Source: Escherichia phage AV116
Sequence record: OR352946.1
Direction: 5' to 3' (one strand)
DNA length: 64,000 nt
This document shows positions 4,691-21,011 of this stretch, piece after piece (position 1 is the stretch's first letter; each line of letters opens with the position of its first letter). Below the pieces are notes generated by a model. That model saw only the letters and a program-made list of their open reading frames with translations, was not told the origin of the DNA and made no database searches. The position numbers and the translations under genes were made by a program.

Positions 4691-4836
4691 TACTCGCCTT
4701 TTAATACGTTAAGAAGAGCTAAGACCGCTAAGGTACCTTGTGATACGGCCTGTTGAAATACTGTTGTTTCGCCTGTAACTAAAGTGTTAACGAATAAAAA
4801 CGACCAACACAACAATGCAATAATCCATGCTACCAT
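4690..4836 (-). CDS. small hydrophobic protein (48 aa), not in ORF track
   Basis: ATG at 4836; MVAWIIALLCWSFLFVNTLVTGETTVFQQAVSQG...; translationally coupled to next ORF. Confidence 0.35.
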   Translation of the reverse strand: MVAWIIALLCWSFLFVNTLVTGETTVFQQAVSQGTLAVLALLNVLKGE

Positions 4837-4888
4837 TTTAATTACCTCAAAAATAAATTAAAGGCCCAACTTAATAGGCCTGTATAAA

Positions 4889-5335
4889 TTAGTAACTCTG
4901 CAGAATGAATTTGAAATTATCTGCCAGAAGACGGTTCATTTCAGTGAGTGTTTGATATTCTGATGTATGGTTGCGAGTGAATGCCAGAGCCAATTGTCCT
5001 TTACCATAACCAGTAGTCAGTGGTTTCATGTTCTTAGCTGCAACAAAGATTACATCATATTCAATATTGTTAGTGCCCATGGTACGGGCTAGTTGTGAAC
5101 GGCCTTGACGAATGTGAGAAAGAATTGCATCCAACCCTTGTTTAGAACGTTGACGTCCTACAAAGAATCGTGCTGCTACTTGTCGCCAATCAGATGAACC
5201 TTTAACAAAGAAGTAAAAACCTTCACGAGAACGAAACTCTTTAGAAACTTCAGAACCGTATTCACCATTACGAACTACTGCAACAACTTCACCGCCAACG
5301 GCCAGAAGGTCTTTACGAGTTAAATATTTGGACAT
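4889..5335 (-). CDS. ndd: nucleoid disruption protein Ndd
   Basis: 148 aa; ...[25 protein letters not shown]...[21 protein letters not shown]...LADNFKF matches T4 Ndd pattern. Confidence 0.65.
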
Positions 5336-5379
5336 GCTAATTTCCTCAATTGATTAATGTTTTTGTAATCCATGAGAGC

Positions 5380-5408
5380 ATTATACTCTGCTCTCAAGAG
5401 TTTGTACA
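5380..5408 (-). promoter_or_regulatory. early promoter upstream of ndd (copy 1 of exact 35-bp duplicate)
   Basis: Minus TGTACAaactcttgagagcagagTATAAT; identical 35 bp recur near 49717. Confidence 0.45.
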
Positions 5409-5411
5409 ATT

Positions 5412-5612
5412 TTATTCGGTTATATCAGAACGTTCAAAAAGCTCTTCAACAGTTAAACATTCAGTGTCATCTTCAATAAAGAATCGAGTCCAACACGTTG
5501 GGGCGATGCAGTTGTGAGTTTGTCCGGCTATAGAAGCTACACGAATAAGTTGCTGACCATTATTCAGGACAAATTTTTCACCAATTTCAACATCTTTAAA
5601 AAGCTTAGCCAT
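5412..5612 (-). CDS. hypothetical early protein
   Basis: 66-aa ORF with upstream promoter motif. Confidence 0.4.
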   Translation of the reverse strand: MAKLFKDVEIGEKFVLNNGQQLIRVASIAGQTHNCIAPTCWTRFFIEDDTECLTVEELFERSDITE

Positions 5613-5640
5613 TTTGTGTTCCTCATGTTTCAGTAGGACT

Positions 5641-5670
5641 ACTATACCATAATCCTACCGTGATGTAAAC
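5641..5670 (-). promoter_or_regulatory. early promoter (GTTTAC ... TATAGT)
   Basis: Plus gtaggactactataccataatcctaccgtgatgtaaac; -10 flanked by inverted repeat. Confidence 0.4.
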
Positions 5671-5862
5671 AATTAAATTACATTAAAATATGTTAAAGCC
5701 AACCATGTTCCAGTGAACGAACATGCAATGTAAAAACCAGTATCACAAATTGTTCTTAGTACAATAAGAAGTGCATTTTTCATAAGTACCTCAATGCAAT
5801 TGAAAATATTATACAAATCATAGGGATACTAAGCAACCATATTCCGATCCACATTTTAGAGC

Positions 5863-6126
5863 TCATATCTCAACTTCCGCGAGTTCCATATATCCTTTGT
5901 TGATAACCTCTTTAAGGTCTTTAGAAAGAATAACACCAAAATGGTCGTTCATATGTCCATTAACTAAACGAGTTATTTCGGCTTCAGATGACATATAAGG
6001 CACGTCTGAGTCCCAATGAGATAGTCCCAAATGGGTATAAATCATCCCTTCGTCATCTGCAGTGTTGTACATTGAAACAAATTCGCCTGTTACTTTATGT
6101 TTTGCGTAGAAAAATTTAAATTTCAT
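5863..6126 (-). CDS. hypothetical early protein
   Basis: 87-aa ORF with upstream promoter and RBS. Confidence 0.45.
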   Translation of the reverse strand: MKFKFFYAKHKVTGEFVSMYNTADDEGMIYTHLGLSHWDSDVPYMSSEAEITRLVNGHMNDHFGVILSKDLKEVINKGYMELAEVEI

Positions 6127-6152
6127 GATGTTATCCTCTTTTAGATAGGACT

Positions 6153-6182
6153 ACTATATCATAGTCCTACTTAGTTGTAAAC
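6153..6182 (-). promoter_or_regulatory. early promoter (GTTTAC-N18-TATAGT) inside 10-bp inverted repeat
   Basis: Plus gtaggactatgatatagtagtcctac...ttgtaaac. Confidence 0.45.
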
Positions 6183-6194
6183 ACTTTTATGAAA

Positions 6195-6876
6195 TTAAAG
6201 ATGAAGATACCACCCGTTGTAGTTGCTCTTGCGGACGATTTTCTTTAGGTCTTCATGGTCTCCCACGAACTTTATAGAATAAGAGAAGACGTCAGGTGAG
6301 GTTTCTTTGACATCTAATATAATAATGCAATCTGCGACTCGATGGTTCAAGAAGGGCCCTATATTGATTCCATTACCACCAGGATAATCACCACTGTATC
6401 CTGTGGTAACCGAAATCCATTTAGAATCTATCTGGTGCGTCTTGACTTCGACACGCAACCCGCAGTATTTAGGATGAGCTAACACGTCCCATGCATACGT
6501 GTACGGGTCTTCTACGTCTTCATTACCTTTATTAACATATCCGTCTAGCCAATTTGCTACTACATACTCTGCAAAGACTGCAACCTTACAACGTCGAACA
6601 ACGTCTTCTTTTATTTGACCTGGATCTTGTTTCAACGAGTACCGAGCAGTGTCAGCAATCTTCACCTTCATTTCACTAGTCAAAAACTCATTCGACAGGA
6701 TAAATGTCGGAAGATTCTTCAGCCTCAACAGCCCCAAGTTCGTCTTTACCATAGATACCTCTGATGTGTAGTTCGCCAAAATAAATGCGGTCACCTTCTT
6801 CAAGATATTCTGCATCTACAGGCGGAATTTCATTAACAACTTCGTCGCATTCTAACCAGCCGTAGTGTGCATCGCG
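6195..6876 (-). pseudogene. rIIB: rIIB-like remnant: no start codon, internal frameshift
   Basis: Protein-like open stretch without start (6691..6876, ...EYLEEGDRIYFGELHIRGIYGKDELGAVEAEE) continues after a frame change into the 206-codon ORF 6195..6815 (...DPYTYAWDVLAHPKY...); the part of that ORF before the shift has G-rich third positions. Confidence 0.35.
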
Positions 6877-7642
6877 TCATCATCCATGTTTGTTCTTTAA
6901 TAACACTTCCGATTGGATATACAATACCACCATAAACAGCCATGATATTACCACGTTCACCCCATGGAGCTTCCTTGGCCAAATATACATCGTCAAATTC
7001 TGGGAAGTATTTAATATCTTTAACACCACGAACTTCTGCAATATCACCTAGAGGACGCATAACATAAGCAATTTCGGATGCGAACTTTTCAAAATCTTCT
7101 GGGTTAACAGGCACAACTACTTCAACGCCGGTCCGGTCATCAGGACCCATCTTATCTACGAAGGTTGGCTTAATCTGTGGACCCGTGTCATCTTGGTAGA
7201 TTACGTAACCACGAACTTCACCGTTGTGATAAGACGTAAGGTTAAACGTATCGGTATATGCTAATGGAGCTTTAGAGCCGAGTCCGAATCCACCAATGAA
7301 ATCGTTACTCGATGTTTTAGTTGAAGCAAAATATGAGTTATAGATTCCTGGCTCTTCGTCATTACCTCGAATGGTGAAATCACTCATACCAGGACCAAAG
7401 TCTCGAACTACAAAACGTGGGTCTAAACGACCTGGAGCCTGAACAATAAACTTATCAGTGCAACCATTAAGAATTTGTCCATCGATACAGTTTGTGATTA
7501 ATTCACGTACACAAGCCAATTCTTTGTTTGTATAAAGGTCATTAGACAAAATCTTATAAACTTTGCTATTGCCTTGAATAGTAAATGCTGTGCTCTTACC
7601 GCCTGAACCAATAATCGTTTCTTTAGCCGTTTCGATAATCAT
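6833..7642 (-). CDS. rIIA: rIIA-like protein, truncated to the N-terminal GHKL-type ATPase domain
   Basis: 269 codons; Bergerat motifs [27 protein letters not shown]; sense ends about codon 261 (KEQTW) then non-coding-like tail; T4 rIIA is about 725 aa. Confidence 0.65.
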
Positions 7643-7654
7643 GTTTTTCTCTCA

Positions 7655-7855
7655 TCACAAGTTACGTTTAAAAATTTCTGCCACTTCGAGAAGTTCTTCT
7701 TTAGTAGCTGTGTCGGTTTGTATTTTATATCGAATTTCCTTAAAGCGTTCTTTAAAGGCTTCAGCTGATTCGATATCAAAAAATCTTTGGATAAGCCGGA
7801 ATTCCCGGAGCACTGCTTTATCAAAAAGTTCCAAGTCCACGTTATATGTTCTCAT
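7655..7855 (-). CDS. small protein (rIIA.1-like position)
   Basis: 66 aa from ATG at 7855 with GAAGAGAA RBS; ORF-track start 7885 reads through the inverted repeat. Confidence 0.4.
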   Translation of the reverse strand: MRTYNVDLELFDKAVLREFRLIQRFFDIESAEAFKERFKEIRYKIQTDTATKEELLEVAEIFKRNL

Positions 7856-7875
7856 AATATTCTCTTCAGTAGATT

Positions 7876-7936
7876 CCTGAGGCACTATTACTAAAGACCA
7901 TATAATCTATCATCTTATGTGTAATAGTGCCTCAGG
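7876..7936. repeat. perfect 16-bp inverted repeat with 29-nt loop
   Basis: cctgaggcactattac ... gtaatagtgcctcagg; intergenic between glycosyltransferase stop and small gene RBS; no T-run. Confidence 0.7.
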
Positions 7937-7947
7937 CGATTCAGGAT

Positions 7948-9048
7948 TTACGCTGTGAAGATTTTATCCCACATCGCAACAACTGCATCTCGATTATACT
8001 TCTTCCATACTGCTTCAGCACGTTTAACTCGAGCTTCGTATGTGTCAGTGAATTCTAATACAGCTTTTGTGTAAAGCGCAACTACTTCTTTCTTAGGAGT
8101 AGAGGAATCAATTTCTACACGCACAGTATCTGGGTCGTATTCGAATGTCGCATGAGGATAATCCTTAAAAACTAACTGGATTACAGGGACACCTTTAGAG
8201 ATGGCTTCAATAGAACTATTCTCTACCGTACCTGTGTCAGGACACGTATTAATAAGTGCTTTAGCTGTTTTAAGACGTTCCATGATTTCACTATGTGGAG
8301 CATCAATAATAACAGGATACTTAGCCGGTGGTGCCCATTTACTAGGACAGTATCCTGCACCATTTTCGCCTAGTGCTTTAATCGCTTCAAGAGCAACATC
8401 AGTGCGACGCATTTTAGTGTCATAACGTTGGGCACTAATAATCAAATCAGTTGCTGGGAGAACTTCTGGCTTTTCGGTCAAACAAATAACCGGGTAGTCA
8501 TCATGTTCAAATAATGGATTTTCACGCCAGTAATCATAATCAATGCTATCAGTAAGAGCTGAAGTCATATGGCAATATTTACGTTCAAATTCACGGAATG
8601 CTTTAGTAGGAGCATAGCTCTTACCACCGTATTTGTGGGTAAGAATAGTTTGTTTCCAAATTTCTACAATACCGCGAGATACAGGCTCAAATGGAGTTGC
8701 CATAAAATTTCTATGAACACTGGATAAACCGGCATCTTTAATTGCGTTAACAGTTAGTTTAGTCGGTTCCATAGTAACAACAAAATCGTATTCATGGATG
8801 CCGGCTAGTTCAACAATCTTACGAGCCATAGTATAACTCATACCTAGACTGAATTTAGTCAGATGACCAACAGGATGATGATTAACTTTCCAGTCACCAA
8901 ACGTGTCATTATCAAAGCCGATATAATCAATATCAGCACCGATGGACACAAGATATTTCAACACATTTAAATGTACTGCTTCAAGGCCACCTTGTACACG
9001 GTCAGGATTAAATGGGACTGCACGAGATGGGATAAACATAACTTTCAT
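7948..9048 (-). CDS. GT-B (GT4-like) glycosyltransferase
   Basis: 366 aa; N-terminus MKVMFIPSRAVPFNPDRVQGGLEAVHLNVLKYLVSIGADIDYIG typical of GT4 retaining glycosyltransferases. Confidence 0.55.
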   Translation of the reverse strand: MKVMFIPSRAVPFNPDRVQGGLEAVHLNVLKYLVSIGADIDYIGFDNDTFGDWKVNHHPVGHLTKFSLGMSYTMARKIVELAGIHEYDFVVTMEPTKLTVNAIKDAGLSSVHRNFMATPFEPVSRGIVEIWKQTILTHKYGGKSYAPTKAFREFERKYCHMTSALTDSIDYDYWRENPLFEHDDYPVICLTEKPEVLPATDLIISAQRYDTKMRRTDVALEAIKALGENGAGYCPSKWAPPAKYPVIIDAPHSEIMERLKTAKALINTCPDTGTVENSSIEAISKGVPVIQLVFKDYPHATFEYDPDTVRVEIDSSTPKKEVVALYTKAVLEFTDTYEARVKRAEAVWKKYNRDAVVAMWDKIFTA

Positions 9049-9074
9049 AATTAAGCCTTATTAAAATTAAAATG

Positions 9075-9092
9075 AAGCTCCCGAAGGAGCTT
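9075..9092 (-). terminator. hairpin terminator (UUCG loop) between HNH endonuclease and glycosyltransferase genes
   Basis: Plus aagctccCGAAggagctt; minus followed by cATTTTAATTTT. Confidence 0.4.
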
Positions 9093-9888
9093 AGGACATC
9101 CAACACATTTTATAACCTTTGCAGGTTCTGTTAGGATTATTTAATGCTTTCAATATATTAGAAGACCCTATATCTAAATACTCCCTTAATTCATAAAGAT
9201 AGTTAAAATCAATAGTTTCACCTGTTTTTACACTTGTGATTCTTATAGGCCTTCTTTCATATTTAGATTTATACAACTCTCTAGTCTTAGCTTTAGTTTC
9301 TTCTGACCTAGGAGTGTATGGTTTAAATCCTTTTGTTTTAAATGTTTCCATTCTTGATTTAGTTATTTTATCCTGGTGTTCTTTTGTTTTTACAGGTGCT
9401 TTTCGCCCATTCTCCCAAGATAACTTGTTGGCCTGTATTATTTTATCTATTGCTTCTTGCGTATGAGTTTTACCATAAAATGGATTTAATTCGCCTATAC
9501 GTTGTGAAGCAATATGTGACATTAATTCTCTTGTTGCTTTAGTATGTTTTTTACCTTTAAATGGATTGCCATTTTTAGCAATCCATTCTTTCATAAATCT
9601 AGAGTGCTCTTTAGAGAATTCTTGTTTAAGCCAATCATAATCTCTAGAATTTCTAGCTCCCATGTAAAAAGCTCTAATAGCCATAAGCATAGAACGGTTC
9701 TTATGAATTTTATAAAGCAATAAATGGGCGATAAAATGCTCTCTAGGGGTCATTTTAACTAGATTTGATTTAGCATTACTCCCACCCATAGATTTAGGCA
9801 AAATATGGTGAGTTTCAGTATAATTAGGAATAGTGCTGCGGTTTTTAGCCGCAGCGATAAGTTTATCATAAATTTTACGATAATTCAT
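9091..9888 (-). CDS. HNH homing endonuclease with NUMOD3 repeats (MobA-like)
   Basis: HHILPKSMGGSNAKSNLVKMTPREHFIAH HNH motif; NPFYGKTHT and NPFKGKKHT repeats; ATG at 9888 overlaps gene 39 stop (TAATG). Confidence 0.8.
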   Translation of the reverse strand: MNYRKIYDKLIAAAKNRSTIPNYTETHHILPKSMGGSNAKSNLVKMTPREHFIAHLLLYKIHKNRSMLMAIRAFYMGARNSRDYDWLKQEFSKEHSRFMKEWIAKNGNPFKGKKHTKATRELMSHIASQRIGELNPFYGKTHTQEAIDKIIQANKLSWENGRKAPVKTKEHQDKITKSRMETFKTKGFKPYTPRSEETKAKTRELYKSKYERRPIRITSVKTGETIDFNYLYELREYLDIGSSNILKALNNPNRTCKGYKMCWMS

Positions 9889-11711
9889 TATCCTAGCATC
9901 CAATCTTTACGGAGTTCAGGGTCGTTACCCATGAGCATTTCAAATAGTTCTTTCCAATTTTCAGGAAGTTTAACTACGTCGTACACAGGGTTTTGAATCA
10001 TTTCTTTATATTCATCCCGCTGAAGTGAGCCCAATCCCTTGATGTATCGAATACTATGCTTAGGCAGTGTATCTTTAACTTCTTCATACTCAGCTACAGT
10101 ATAAAACCATTTTTGAGTTTTGCCAATTTGTGCAATAATTACAGGCGTTTTAACAAAGCGAATACGTCCTTGTTCAAACAATTCAGGCCAATTACTAAAG
10201 AAAGCAAGCAAAGCCGGATAAATACTTCCAAGGCCGTCATGATCGGCATCGGTCATAATTGCAATATTACGGTAGTTCGTATTCTCTGCCTTTTCACCAA
10301 GAATAAGACCCGTGATAGCACAGATATCAAAGAGCTCTTTGTTCTTCATCATATCGGCATATGACATACCCCAGCTATTCATCACCTTACCACGTAATGG
10401 GAATCCGCCGTGTAGTTCACGGTCACGAACATCAATGAGATAACCAATTGCCGAATCACCTTCTGTTAAAAACAATGTCGTATCTGCATCTTTACCACAT
10501 TGGTTAGCTTTAATATGCTTATGAACCTTAGCTTTAGTTGCCTTTTTAGCTGCTTTAGTTTCTGCAGCCTTTTCTGCTGCCAATTTACGAGCTAATGCGG
10601 CTTCAATTATAGGCATTAAAACTGCGTCAGAATTCAAAATATTTTTTGCCAATTTTTTTGTATCTAATTTAATATGCGTCCGAATTTCGCCATAAGGACT
10701 TGTTAAACGCTCTTTGGTTTGGGAATCAAAACGAAGGTTCTTCATTCCACGAACGAACATTAAGAGAGTGAGACATTCCTTGATTCGCGCTTTAGTCACG
10801 TCGATTTTATATTTGCGTTTAATAGCCGGAATTAATTCTTCGCTAATGTCGTCCATCACACATTCAATGTGATGACCACCGTTTTTGGTATGGATGTTAT
10901 TCACATAAGTTAAATGACGGAAGCCATCTGGTGACCGTCCAATGGCAATAGAGCATCCGTCTTGTTCTTGAATGATGGTCTCTTCATCAAATTGTTTAGC
11001 AAACTTCTTAAAGTTACCTTGAATCTTTTTGCCATTAAATTTAAATTCAATACCAGGATAAACGACCGCCAATGTTTGGAGCCGGTCTATAGTAATATCT
11101 TGGTATATTTTTTCAAATTGATTCATTTCAAAATGTGAGAAATCAGGAATAAACTCGACCTTAGTACCGTTGTTTTTAGACGGCTTAGATTTCCAAGAAA
11201 TATTATCAGCGTTATTAGAACAATTAACGGTCAATTCATTTTTACCATCTGAAGTAGTGCCAACAAAAGAGACAGAAAAAATATTTGTTAATGAAGAACC
11301 GACACCGTTTTGTCCACCCGTAACACGTTCTTTGTCGTCACCAAAGTTGCCACCGGCTTTTGTACGTGTCCACGCCGCAACTGGTCCTGGAATTTCTTCT
11401 CCTTCAGGAGTAATAACTGTTTCTTGAGGAATACCTCGACCATTATCTTCAACAGTCACTTTATTAGAATTTAAATCAATACTAACGGAAATTTTATTAG
11501 CATATTTGAAATTGGTTCGAATAGCTTCGTCTACTGAGTTGTCAATAATTTCATCAATTAATTTGAGAACACCTGCAACATATTTAACCTTTTTAAATTC
11601 ACCGAATAGGAAACGTTCTTGTTCTTCATTGGCAACACTTCCAATATACATGCCAGGACGCTTCAAACAATGCTCTTTATCAGATAGCATTTCAATTTTA
11701 TTATCAATCAT
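9888..11711 (-). CDS. 39: DNA topoisomerase II large subunit (gp39, GyrB-like), unsplit
   Basis: About 607 aa from ATG 11711 (MIDNKIEMLSDKEHCLKRPGMYIGS...); one continuous ORF spanning ATPase and Toprim parts. Confidence 0.9.
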   Translation of the reverse strand: MIDNKIEMLSDKEHCLKRPGMYIGSVANEEQERFLFGEFKKVKYVAGVLKLIDEIIDNSVDEAIRTNFKYANKISVSIDLNSNKVTVEDNGRGIPQETVITPEGEEIPGPVAAWTRTKAGGNFGDDKERVTGGQNGVGSSLTNIFSVSFVGTTSDGKNELTVNCSNNADNISWKSKPSKNNGTKVEFIPDFSHFEMNQFEKIYQDITIDRLQTLAVVYPGIEFKFNGKKIQGNFKKFAKQFDEETIIQEQDGCSIAIGRSPDGFRHLTYVNNIHTKNGGHHIECVMDDISEELIPAIKRKYKIDVTKARIKECLTLLMFVRGMKNLRFDSQTKERLTSPYGEIRTHIKLDTKKLAKNILNSDAVLMPIIEAALARKLAAEKAAETKAAKKATKAKVHKHIKANQCGKDADTTLFLTEGDSAIGYLIDVRDRELHGGFPLRGKVMNSWGMSYADMMKNKELFDICAITGLILGEKAENTNYRNIAIMTDADHDGLGSIYPALLAFFSNWPELFEQGRIRFVKTPVIIAQIGKTQKWFYTVAEYEEVKDTLPKHSIRYIKGLGSLQRDEYKEMIQNPVYDVVKLPENWKELFEMLMGNDPELRKDWMLG

Positions 11712-15214: not shown

Positions 15215-15244
15215 ATTTTTTCTCTCTTTGTTTAAGTTAAATTC

Positions 15245-15274
15245 ATTATACTCCAACCATCCTTGGTTGTAAAC
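15245..15274 (-). promoter_or_regulatory. early promoter (GTTTAC-N18-TATAAT), copy 1 of exact 27-bp duplicate
   Basis: Plus attatactccaaccatccttggttgtaaac; same 27 bp near 57814. Confidence 0.5.
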
Positions 15275-20805: not shown

Positions 20806-21011
20806 TCAGAATAACTTGACCCAGAATCACCAGGCCAAGACGATACGTATGAATGATTATAATCGGAAGAGCTTGAAGCAGACTTAGGACGAATAACTTC
20901 TTCCATCATGCCGTCACCAATGTATTCCCAACTTTTTTCGTGTGTATCAGGAATAGGCATCATACCTTCGCCTGGTTTAACAGCAAACAACTTCTTCAGC
21001 ATCGTAAGCAT
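20775..21011 (-). CDS. hypothetical protein with Ser/Gly-rich C-terminus (start uncertain)
   Basis: ORF-track ORF 20775..21086 overlaps the upstream gene; start probably at an internal Met. Confidence 0.3.
   Translation of the reverse strand: MLTMLKKLFAVKPGEGMMPIPDTHEKSWEYIGDGMMEEVIRPKSASSSSDYNHSYVSSWPGDSGSSYSDCGSSSGSCE

Follow-up and report, generated by a model that had tools for sequence, protein, structure and literature searches.

The rII locus of Escherichia phage AV116 (OR352946), which lies at positions 6195..7642 of the 64,000-nt stretch of its genome analysed here (hereafter the window), is very probably the scar of one ~2.5-kb deletion in a Mosigvirus phage. One event removed rIIA codons 260 and above, the entire rIIB gene and codons 1–34 of a gene for a DUF7418 protein, and spared the next gene, denB. 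AV116 was obtained from pig waste in Denmark and has a genome of 167,816 bp (PMC10844046); megablast assigns the window to Mosigvirus, the RB69-like T-even phages. A sequence-only reading of the window had proposed an rII-minus genotype produced by an out-of-frame deletion, and this proposal is borne out: the window contains no rIIA from about residue 260 on and no rIIB at all. The genotype of AV116 appears to be rII-null, with a phenotype that can only be predicted.

The junction is defined by comparison with intact relatives, in which the gene order is rIIA.1, rIIA (737 aa), rIIB (308–315 aa), a 95-aa hypothetical gene, denB and an 87-aa gene, as read in APCEc01, AV109, AV115, AV118, NicPhage, ChristianSchoenbein and mobillu. 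Alignment of the window with APCEc01 yields two blocks (window 9100..6867 and 6875..4800) that share 9 nt. This 9-mer, GCGATGCAC, occurs twice in intact genomes, with copy 1 in rIIA codons 256–258 and copy 2 in codons 34–36 of the 95-aa DUF7418 gene (L003 7126 and 9650 in AV109, L002 7126 and 9672 in APCEc01). The window and phage FL18 have one copy each, and the surviving copy in the window is at 6867..6875 on the minus strand, where the alignment blocks overlap. The window lacks 2,524 bp when compared with AV109 and 2,546 bp when compared with APCEc01, in each case the distance between the repeats. One repeat copy and the intervening DNA have been lost exactly, which is the pattern of a short-direct-repeat deletion, and the junction is a clean microhomology scar. 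Both distances are of the form 3n+2 and rIIA therefore enters 10 out-of-frame codons followed by a stop. An out-of-frame junction had been placed earlier at 6876..6887; its existence and the loss of frame stand, and its position was correct to within ~10 nt.

The truncated rIIA open reading frame (ORF), with 269 codons and a stop, occupies 6833..7642 on the minus strand and was identified by a phrog_612 match and by tblastn. In a PHROGs search, its residues 1–256 match profile positions 1–257 of the 725 positions of the RIIA family phrog_612 (E=7e-116), which is a profile coverage of only 35% and well short of full length. tblastn with AV109 rIIA matches residues 1–265 only (97% identical), and no rIIA beyond residue 265 is found by this search in the 64-kb window. 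The rIIA-derived bases (7642..6867) amount to 258 codons plus 2 nt, with Thr259 retained coincidentally; the out-of-frame tail is encoded at 6865..6836 and the stop TAA is at 6835..6833. The product consists of ~259 native residues and the 10-residue tail, which agrees with the earlier view that rIIA is reduced to its N-terminal part with a short tail, and it is identical to the deposited AV116 protein WPK35523.1. GHKL/Bergerat-type motifs are legible in the retained part, namely ExxxNxxD (ELITNCID), DxGxG (DFGPGM) and GxxGxG (GGFGLGSK). Matches to the N-domain of the Hsp90 family (endoplasmin) are weak (E~0.006) and cover rIIA residues 17–55, around the N-box, and no Pfam match was obtained. 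Neither truncated rIIA nor DenB, intact rIIA or intact rIIB has a Pfam or NCBIfam family match, and PHROGs were needed. Sequence records label the 269/270-aa fragment plainly as ‘rIIA lysis inhibitor’ in AV116 (WPK35523.1) and FL18 (XAO15106.1, L001 4359..5171), and several records label rIIA.1 as rIIA. rII is unmentioned in the source papers for AV116 (PMC10844046) and FL18 (PMC12032242).

rIIB has left no trace in the window: AV109 RIIB used as a tblastn query against all six frames of the 64 kb gave no match at E≤1. The sequence-only reading had described a start-less, rIIB-like remnant downstream of rIIA. A protein-like stretch of 62 codons without a start codon is indeed present at 6691..6876, and it is its assignment to rIIB that fails. 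This stretch is a remnant of the DUF7418 gene, which is placed between rIIB and denB in intact relatives (AV109 L003 9550..9837). The remnant (6688..6873 on the minus strand, residues 35–95 plus the stop) matches Pfam DUF7418 (PF24193, E=1.5e-20) at profile positions 37–99 of 101 and phrog_2237 at positions 36–105 of 106, compared with positions 1–105 for the intact AV109 homologue. tblastn identifies it as residues 35–95 of the 95-aa gene with 98% identity. It lacks a start codon and codons 1–34, among them the Cys/His-rich stretch HHKCKSVYC, and is not a full-length family match with its own start. T4 DenB.1 (64 aa) was considered as an identity for the remnant and rejected, with a best local alignment score of 21 over 18 residues that represents noise. 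The 95-aa DUF7418 gene is equivalent to T4 denB.1 by genomic slot only. The Cys/His-rich N-terminus of its intact product (HHKCKSVYC...H...C) suggests a small metal-binding protein.

denB is intact at 6195..6752 on the minus strand and encodes a 185-aa protein that is identical to AV109 DenB at 185/185 positions and matches phrog_1360 (E=2e-81). T4 DenB (185 aa) aligns with it without gaps from Met1 to the ATG at window 6752, with 134/185 identical residues overall and 17/27 in the first 27, and homology indicates that the product is probably a DNA endonuclease IV (dC-specific single-strand endonuclease). The start ATG (6752..6750) has a GAGG Shine-Dalgarno sequence (6761..6758) 5 nt upstream, and this ribosome-binding site is 115 nt clear of the junction. 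The final 62 nt and the stop of the DUF7418 gene are shared with denB, which is read there in another frame (window 6688..6752), and intact relatives conserve both frames. The 206-codon ORF at 6195..6815 consists of denB and 21 spurious upstream codons; this open frame and the sequence of the T5 run are unchanged in intact AV109, AV118, AV115 and APCEc01. The 206-codon ORF had been taken for a frameshifted remnant, and a second frameshift had been proposed near the T5 run around 6700. The former proves to be intact DenB and the latter the natural DUF7418/denB overlap, which has the same frames and sequence in intact relatives. Promoter and terminator scans for polar effects on denB gave results at or below shuffle expectation. 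Many Mosigvirus records give DenB as 158 aa with a start at 6671, which omits the 27 N-terminal residues conserved with T4 DenB.

The nearest genome to the window is AV109 (OR352939), which is 99.0% identical over 24 kb. AV109 64914..131416 is collinear with all 64 kb of the window at 99% identity save for the 2,524-bp gap, and every other indel between the two is ≤9 nt. Only nine differences from AV109 occur in window 6–14 kb, and the deletion therefore looks recent and appears to have arisen on an AV109-like segment. The window is strongly mosaic relative to AV109, with blocks of 0–2 differences per 2 kb (e.g., 6–14 kb) that alternate with blocks of 40–54. Small in-frame indels relative to AV109 occur at ~15236–15250, a 9-nt indel is present at 20884, and the final 600 nt of the window are 93% identical to AV109.

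The identical junction occurs in FL18 (PP400780), which was isolated on MG1655 from piglet faeces (PMC12032242) and is the sole such record among 159 matching Mosigvirus records. A comparison of 2 kb of flanking sequence per side gives 8/2009 differences on the left and 26/2009 on the right between the window and intact AV109, with the nearest ones 482 nt to the left and 34 nt to the right of the repeat. Differences from FL18 number 111/2009 on the left and 81/2009 on the right, and the nearest are 12 nt to the left and 21 nt to the right. The FL18 C variant at −12 is also present in intact WFL6982, its variants at +41, +44, +47 and +74 are also present in intact OZ035759 and ChristianSchoenbein, and no variant in the flanks compared is exclusive to the two deletion carriers. 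The two alleles lie on separate haplotypes, each with intact counterparts up to the repeat, which makes independent recurrence the more parsimonious explanation. We favour the interpretation that the same junction arose independently in AV116 and FL18, as the flanking sequences suggest.

The alternative of a single origin holds that the deletion occurred once in a Danish pig-associated Mosigvirus population and then spread by homologous recombination to other backgrounds. AV116 and FL18 both come from Danish pig material and from the same research group (PMC12032242, PMC10844046), T-even genomes are highly mosaic, as the alternation of 0–2 and 40–54 differences per 2 kb between the window and AV109 illustrates, and chance re-use of one of 58 candidate repeat pairs is improbable. 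However, the two phages share a tract of no more than 11+9+20 nt around the junction, which is equally common to intact phages, no single-nucleotide polymorphism is unique to the window and FL18, and the flanks match different intact haplotypes up to the repeat. Crossovers within ~12 and ~21 nt of the junction, one on each side, would be needed. A single origin is unlikely on this evidence.

Independent recurrence raises the question of why this repeat pair was used. The intact 3.5-kb span contains 58 exact direct-repeat pairs of at least 9 bp, compared with ~29 in shuffles, and these include one 12-mer and five 11-mers. In GC content the GCGATGCAC pair leads the 58, its core ranks 4th of the 12 exact cores compared for nearest-neighbour stability, and extended local homology places the pair 45th of 579. 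Repeat strength was considered as the reason for recurrence and rejected given that longer repeats are present and that the pair ranks only 45th of 579. The perfect pair is also polymorphic, with both copies exact in 4/8 intact relatives that could be read and one copy mismatched in 4/8, which argues against a conserved “contingency” element. NicPhage and ChristianSchoenbein are examples of phages with an imperfect copy. The hotspot test rests on two cases, i.e., the same junction in two haplotypes. It seems improbable that the GCGATGCAC pair is a true deletion hotspot that recurrently disables rII, with the variants kept in pig-gut phage populations because they escape RIIB-sensing defences. 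If such a hotspot exists, rII would carry a natural, recurrent trade-off polymorphism, with Rex-type sensitivity as its cost, rather than laboratory noise, and the hotspot would act only in Mosigvirus lineages that carry both perfect copies.

Other rII alleles were sought in a 90% cluster of the truncated product in Logan and European Nucleotide Archive (ENA) assemblies, with junctions inferred from AV109 DNA. One product (P0004, 407 aa), whose contigs reach 157,639 nt, is the in-frame fusion rIIA(1–294)::rIIB(196–308), which resembles T4 r1589 in architecture. Its predicted lesion is a 1,926-bp deletion at the 6-bp microhomology GTTGCA (AV109 L003 7240/9167). P0008 and P0010, on separate contigs, end exactly at the P0004 junction, P0007 is rIIA(1–166) joined out of frame to rIIB, and further products in the cluster (P0007–P0012) bear other tails. 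The Mosigvirus rII locus is generally deletion-prone.

An assembly or consensus artefact, in which the real phage would have intact rII and an assembler collapsed or skipped 2.5 kb, had been offered as the alternative in the sequence-only reading. The present analysis was made on assembled sequence, and the termination of the ENA contigs of P0008 and P0010 exactly at another rII junction hints at mixed populations in such samples. Nevertheless, an artefact is very unlikely because the repeat, at 9 bp, is much shorter than the k-mers used by assemblers and too short for collapse, and because the same junction occurs in FL18, which was isolated and sequenced independently and is 5% divergent locally. 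Both flanks of the junction are otherwise perfectly collinear with AV109.

Two further explanations have almost no probability. The first is the anatomy originally described, i.e., a truncated rIIA followed by a start-less, frameshifted rIIB remnant, with a deletion and a frameshift around 6700 as separate lesions. Two reading frames do follow each other 3′ of the junction, but the window has no similarity to rIIB, the remnant is DUF7418, the change of frame is the natural DUF7418/denB overlap and DenB is full length. The second is that a short rIIA beside DenB is the normal architecture of a Mosigvirus sub-lineage and that there is no lesion; FL18 has the same arrangement and both ORFs are annotated as ordinary genes, but the flanks are not adjacent in 158/159 matching records, rIIA has 737 aa in 8/8 intact relatives inspected (it is the sole such gene within the WFL6982 locus), and the six relatives with annotated loci that cover rIIB, the 95-aa gene and denB have all three annotated. 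Moreover, the rIIA ORF ends in out-of-frame junk, the remnant has no start and the nearest relative, AV109, is intact. Comparison with related phages cuts both ways for the sequence-only reading: the short rIIA is confined to 1/159 records, whereas the downstream protein is intact and conserved.

Several points weigh against the interpretation of the locus as the scar of one ~2.5-kb rII-null deletion. The strength of the repeats fails to explain two uses of the same pair. The junction 29-mer GATGATGACGCGATGCACACTACGGCTGG has 0 matches in IMG/VR and 0 in Joint Genome Institute (JGI) metagenome contigs, so the allele is not evidenced as common in nature. With data at the assembly level, the deletion may represent a mixed population or a variant derived from propagation. 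Continued expression of denB is presumed from its intact ORF and Shine-Dalgarno sequence, and Rex sensitivity of an rII-null Mosigvirus would be an extrapolation from T4 and T6.

The surroundings of the locus are those of a T-even phage. Every gene in window 3–12 kb is on the minus strand, and the gene set is that of T-even phages, with topoisomerase subunits gp52 and gp39, Ndd, Ac and rIIA.1. An intact rIIA.1-like gene lies directly upstream of rIIA at 7655..7885 on the minus strand (Pfam PF24210 T4_RIIA1, E=6e-30) and is annotated there in all relatives. A 270-aa ORF at window 9091..9903 on the minus strand, between the gp39 topoisomerase gene and a 366-aa gene, corresponds to a homing endonuclease in the AV109 and AV115 annotations; it is missing at that position in FL18 and APCEc01, and AV118 has two ORFs there. 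The top sigma-70-like promoter match of the region is at window 6153..6181 on the minus strand (TTTACA-17-TATAGT with an upstream TG, 10/12). It lies just 3′ of denB and before the 87-aa gene, overlaps a hairpin with an 8-bp stem and is also present in AV109.

A sequence of events can be proposed for the deletion. An intact ancestor would have carried rIIA (737 aa), rIIB (308–315 aa), the 95-aa DUF7418 gene and denB, with GCGATGCAC in both rIIA and the DUF7418 gene. The two copies would have misaligned, with loss of the intervening DNA and survival of one copy, possible routes being replication slippage, copy-choice and repeat annealing in the course of T4-type recombination or break repair. 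As a result, rIIA is read into its 10 out-of-frame codons and stops, rIIB is gone, the DUF7418 gene is left without a start and denB remains intact. The deletion may have arisen in nature or during laboratory propagation.

Such deletions have long been familiar in T4. The classical T4 rII deletions (Benzer’s set) were also spontaneous and viable and lay in the non-essential rII region, and T4 rII deletions that were sequenced later likewise lie between short direct repeats of which one copy survives. Older work on T4 rII deletions reportedly includes that of Pribnow et al. in 1981 and of Singer and Westlye in 1988. Unlike the classical T4 mutants, the AV116 allele comes from a field isolate of Mosigvirus rather than from a selected laboratory mutant, its junction is found in two divergent isolates, and the deletion starts at rIIA codon 259, takes in the entire rIIB gene and reaches into the DUF7418 gene. 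T4 r1589 is an in-frame rIIA–rIIB fusion that keeps rIIB function, whereas the AV116 junction is out of frame (3n+2) and rIIB is absent. T4 rIIB-denB-ndd deletions such as NB5060 are used in T4 strains with dC-DNA. Deletions of the NB5060 type also extend from rII into non-essential neighbours, but they remove denB, which is intact in AV116.

Recent work provides closer parallels. T4 deletions arise by recombination at microhomologies of 6–10 bp, and one that spanned rII abolished growth on a λ lysogen (PMC9391042). This rII-spanning deletion, that of T4 ‘evo 3’ from experimental evolution against toxIN (Srikant, Guegler and Laub, eLife 2022; PMC9391042), is likewise kilobase-scale and microhomology-flanked and removes rIIA and rIIB. 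The ‘evo 3’ deletion was read as compensation for amplified dmd-tifA under headful packaging; compensation for DNA gained elsewhere was considered for AV116 and rejected for the 64-kb window, which contains no gain relative to AV109. The whole genomes measure 167,816 bp (AV116) and 168,548 bp (AV109) in spite of the 2,524-bp loss, so gains of about 1.8 kb may lie outside the window. RIIB was likewise lost in another T-even phage, T6, in which rIIB-null mutants escape a CARD/gasdermin defence triggered by RIIB and become RexAB-sensitive (Wein et al., bioRxiv 2023, 10.1101/2023.05.28.542683). With this escape, rII loss outside the laboratory has a concrete selective rationale. In the T6 escapers only rIIB is hit, by point mutations of the frameshift or nonsense type, whereas the whole of rIIB and two thirds of rIIA are deleted in AV116.

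Phenotypic expectations for AV116 follow by analogy. A T4 rIIAB mutant is RexAB-sensitive and wild-type T-even phages, including Mosigvirus isolates, are not (PMC8594841). AV116 is predicted to fail on hosts with RexAB-type exclusion, its lysis timing may be altered on some hosts, and it is predicted to be invisible to RIIB-triggered defences.

The mechanism is not new: deletions at microhomologies have been familiar in T-even phages for decades. The AV116 allele is a previously unremarked natural rII-null allele made by this classical mechanism, and the sole unexpected point is that a single, modest 9-bp repeat pair was apparently used in each of two lineages. Annotation can be corrected in that the 269–270-aa ‘rIIA lysis inhibitor’ is a fragment and DenB is 27 residues too short in many Mosigvirus records. 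AV116 is part of a phage collection put forward as biocontrol agents against extended-spectrum β-lactamase (ESBL) E. coli, and FL18 has served in studies of host range and receptors. An unnoticed rII-null genotype could alter plating on lysogens, lysis timing and the defences that are effective against such phages, and host-range data should be read accordingly. rII is a textbook phage locus that is kept by nearly all T-even relatives, and field isolates without it are therefore useful natural knock-outs with which rII can be studied beyond T4 and lambda-Rex.

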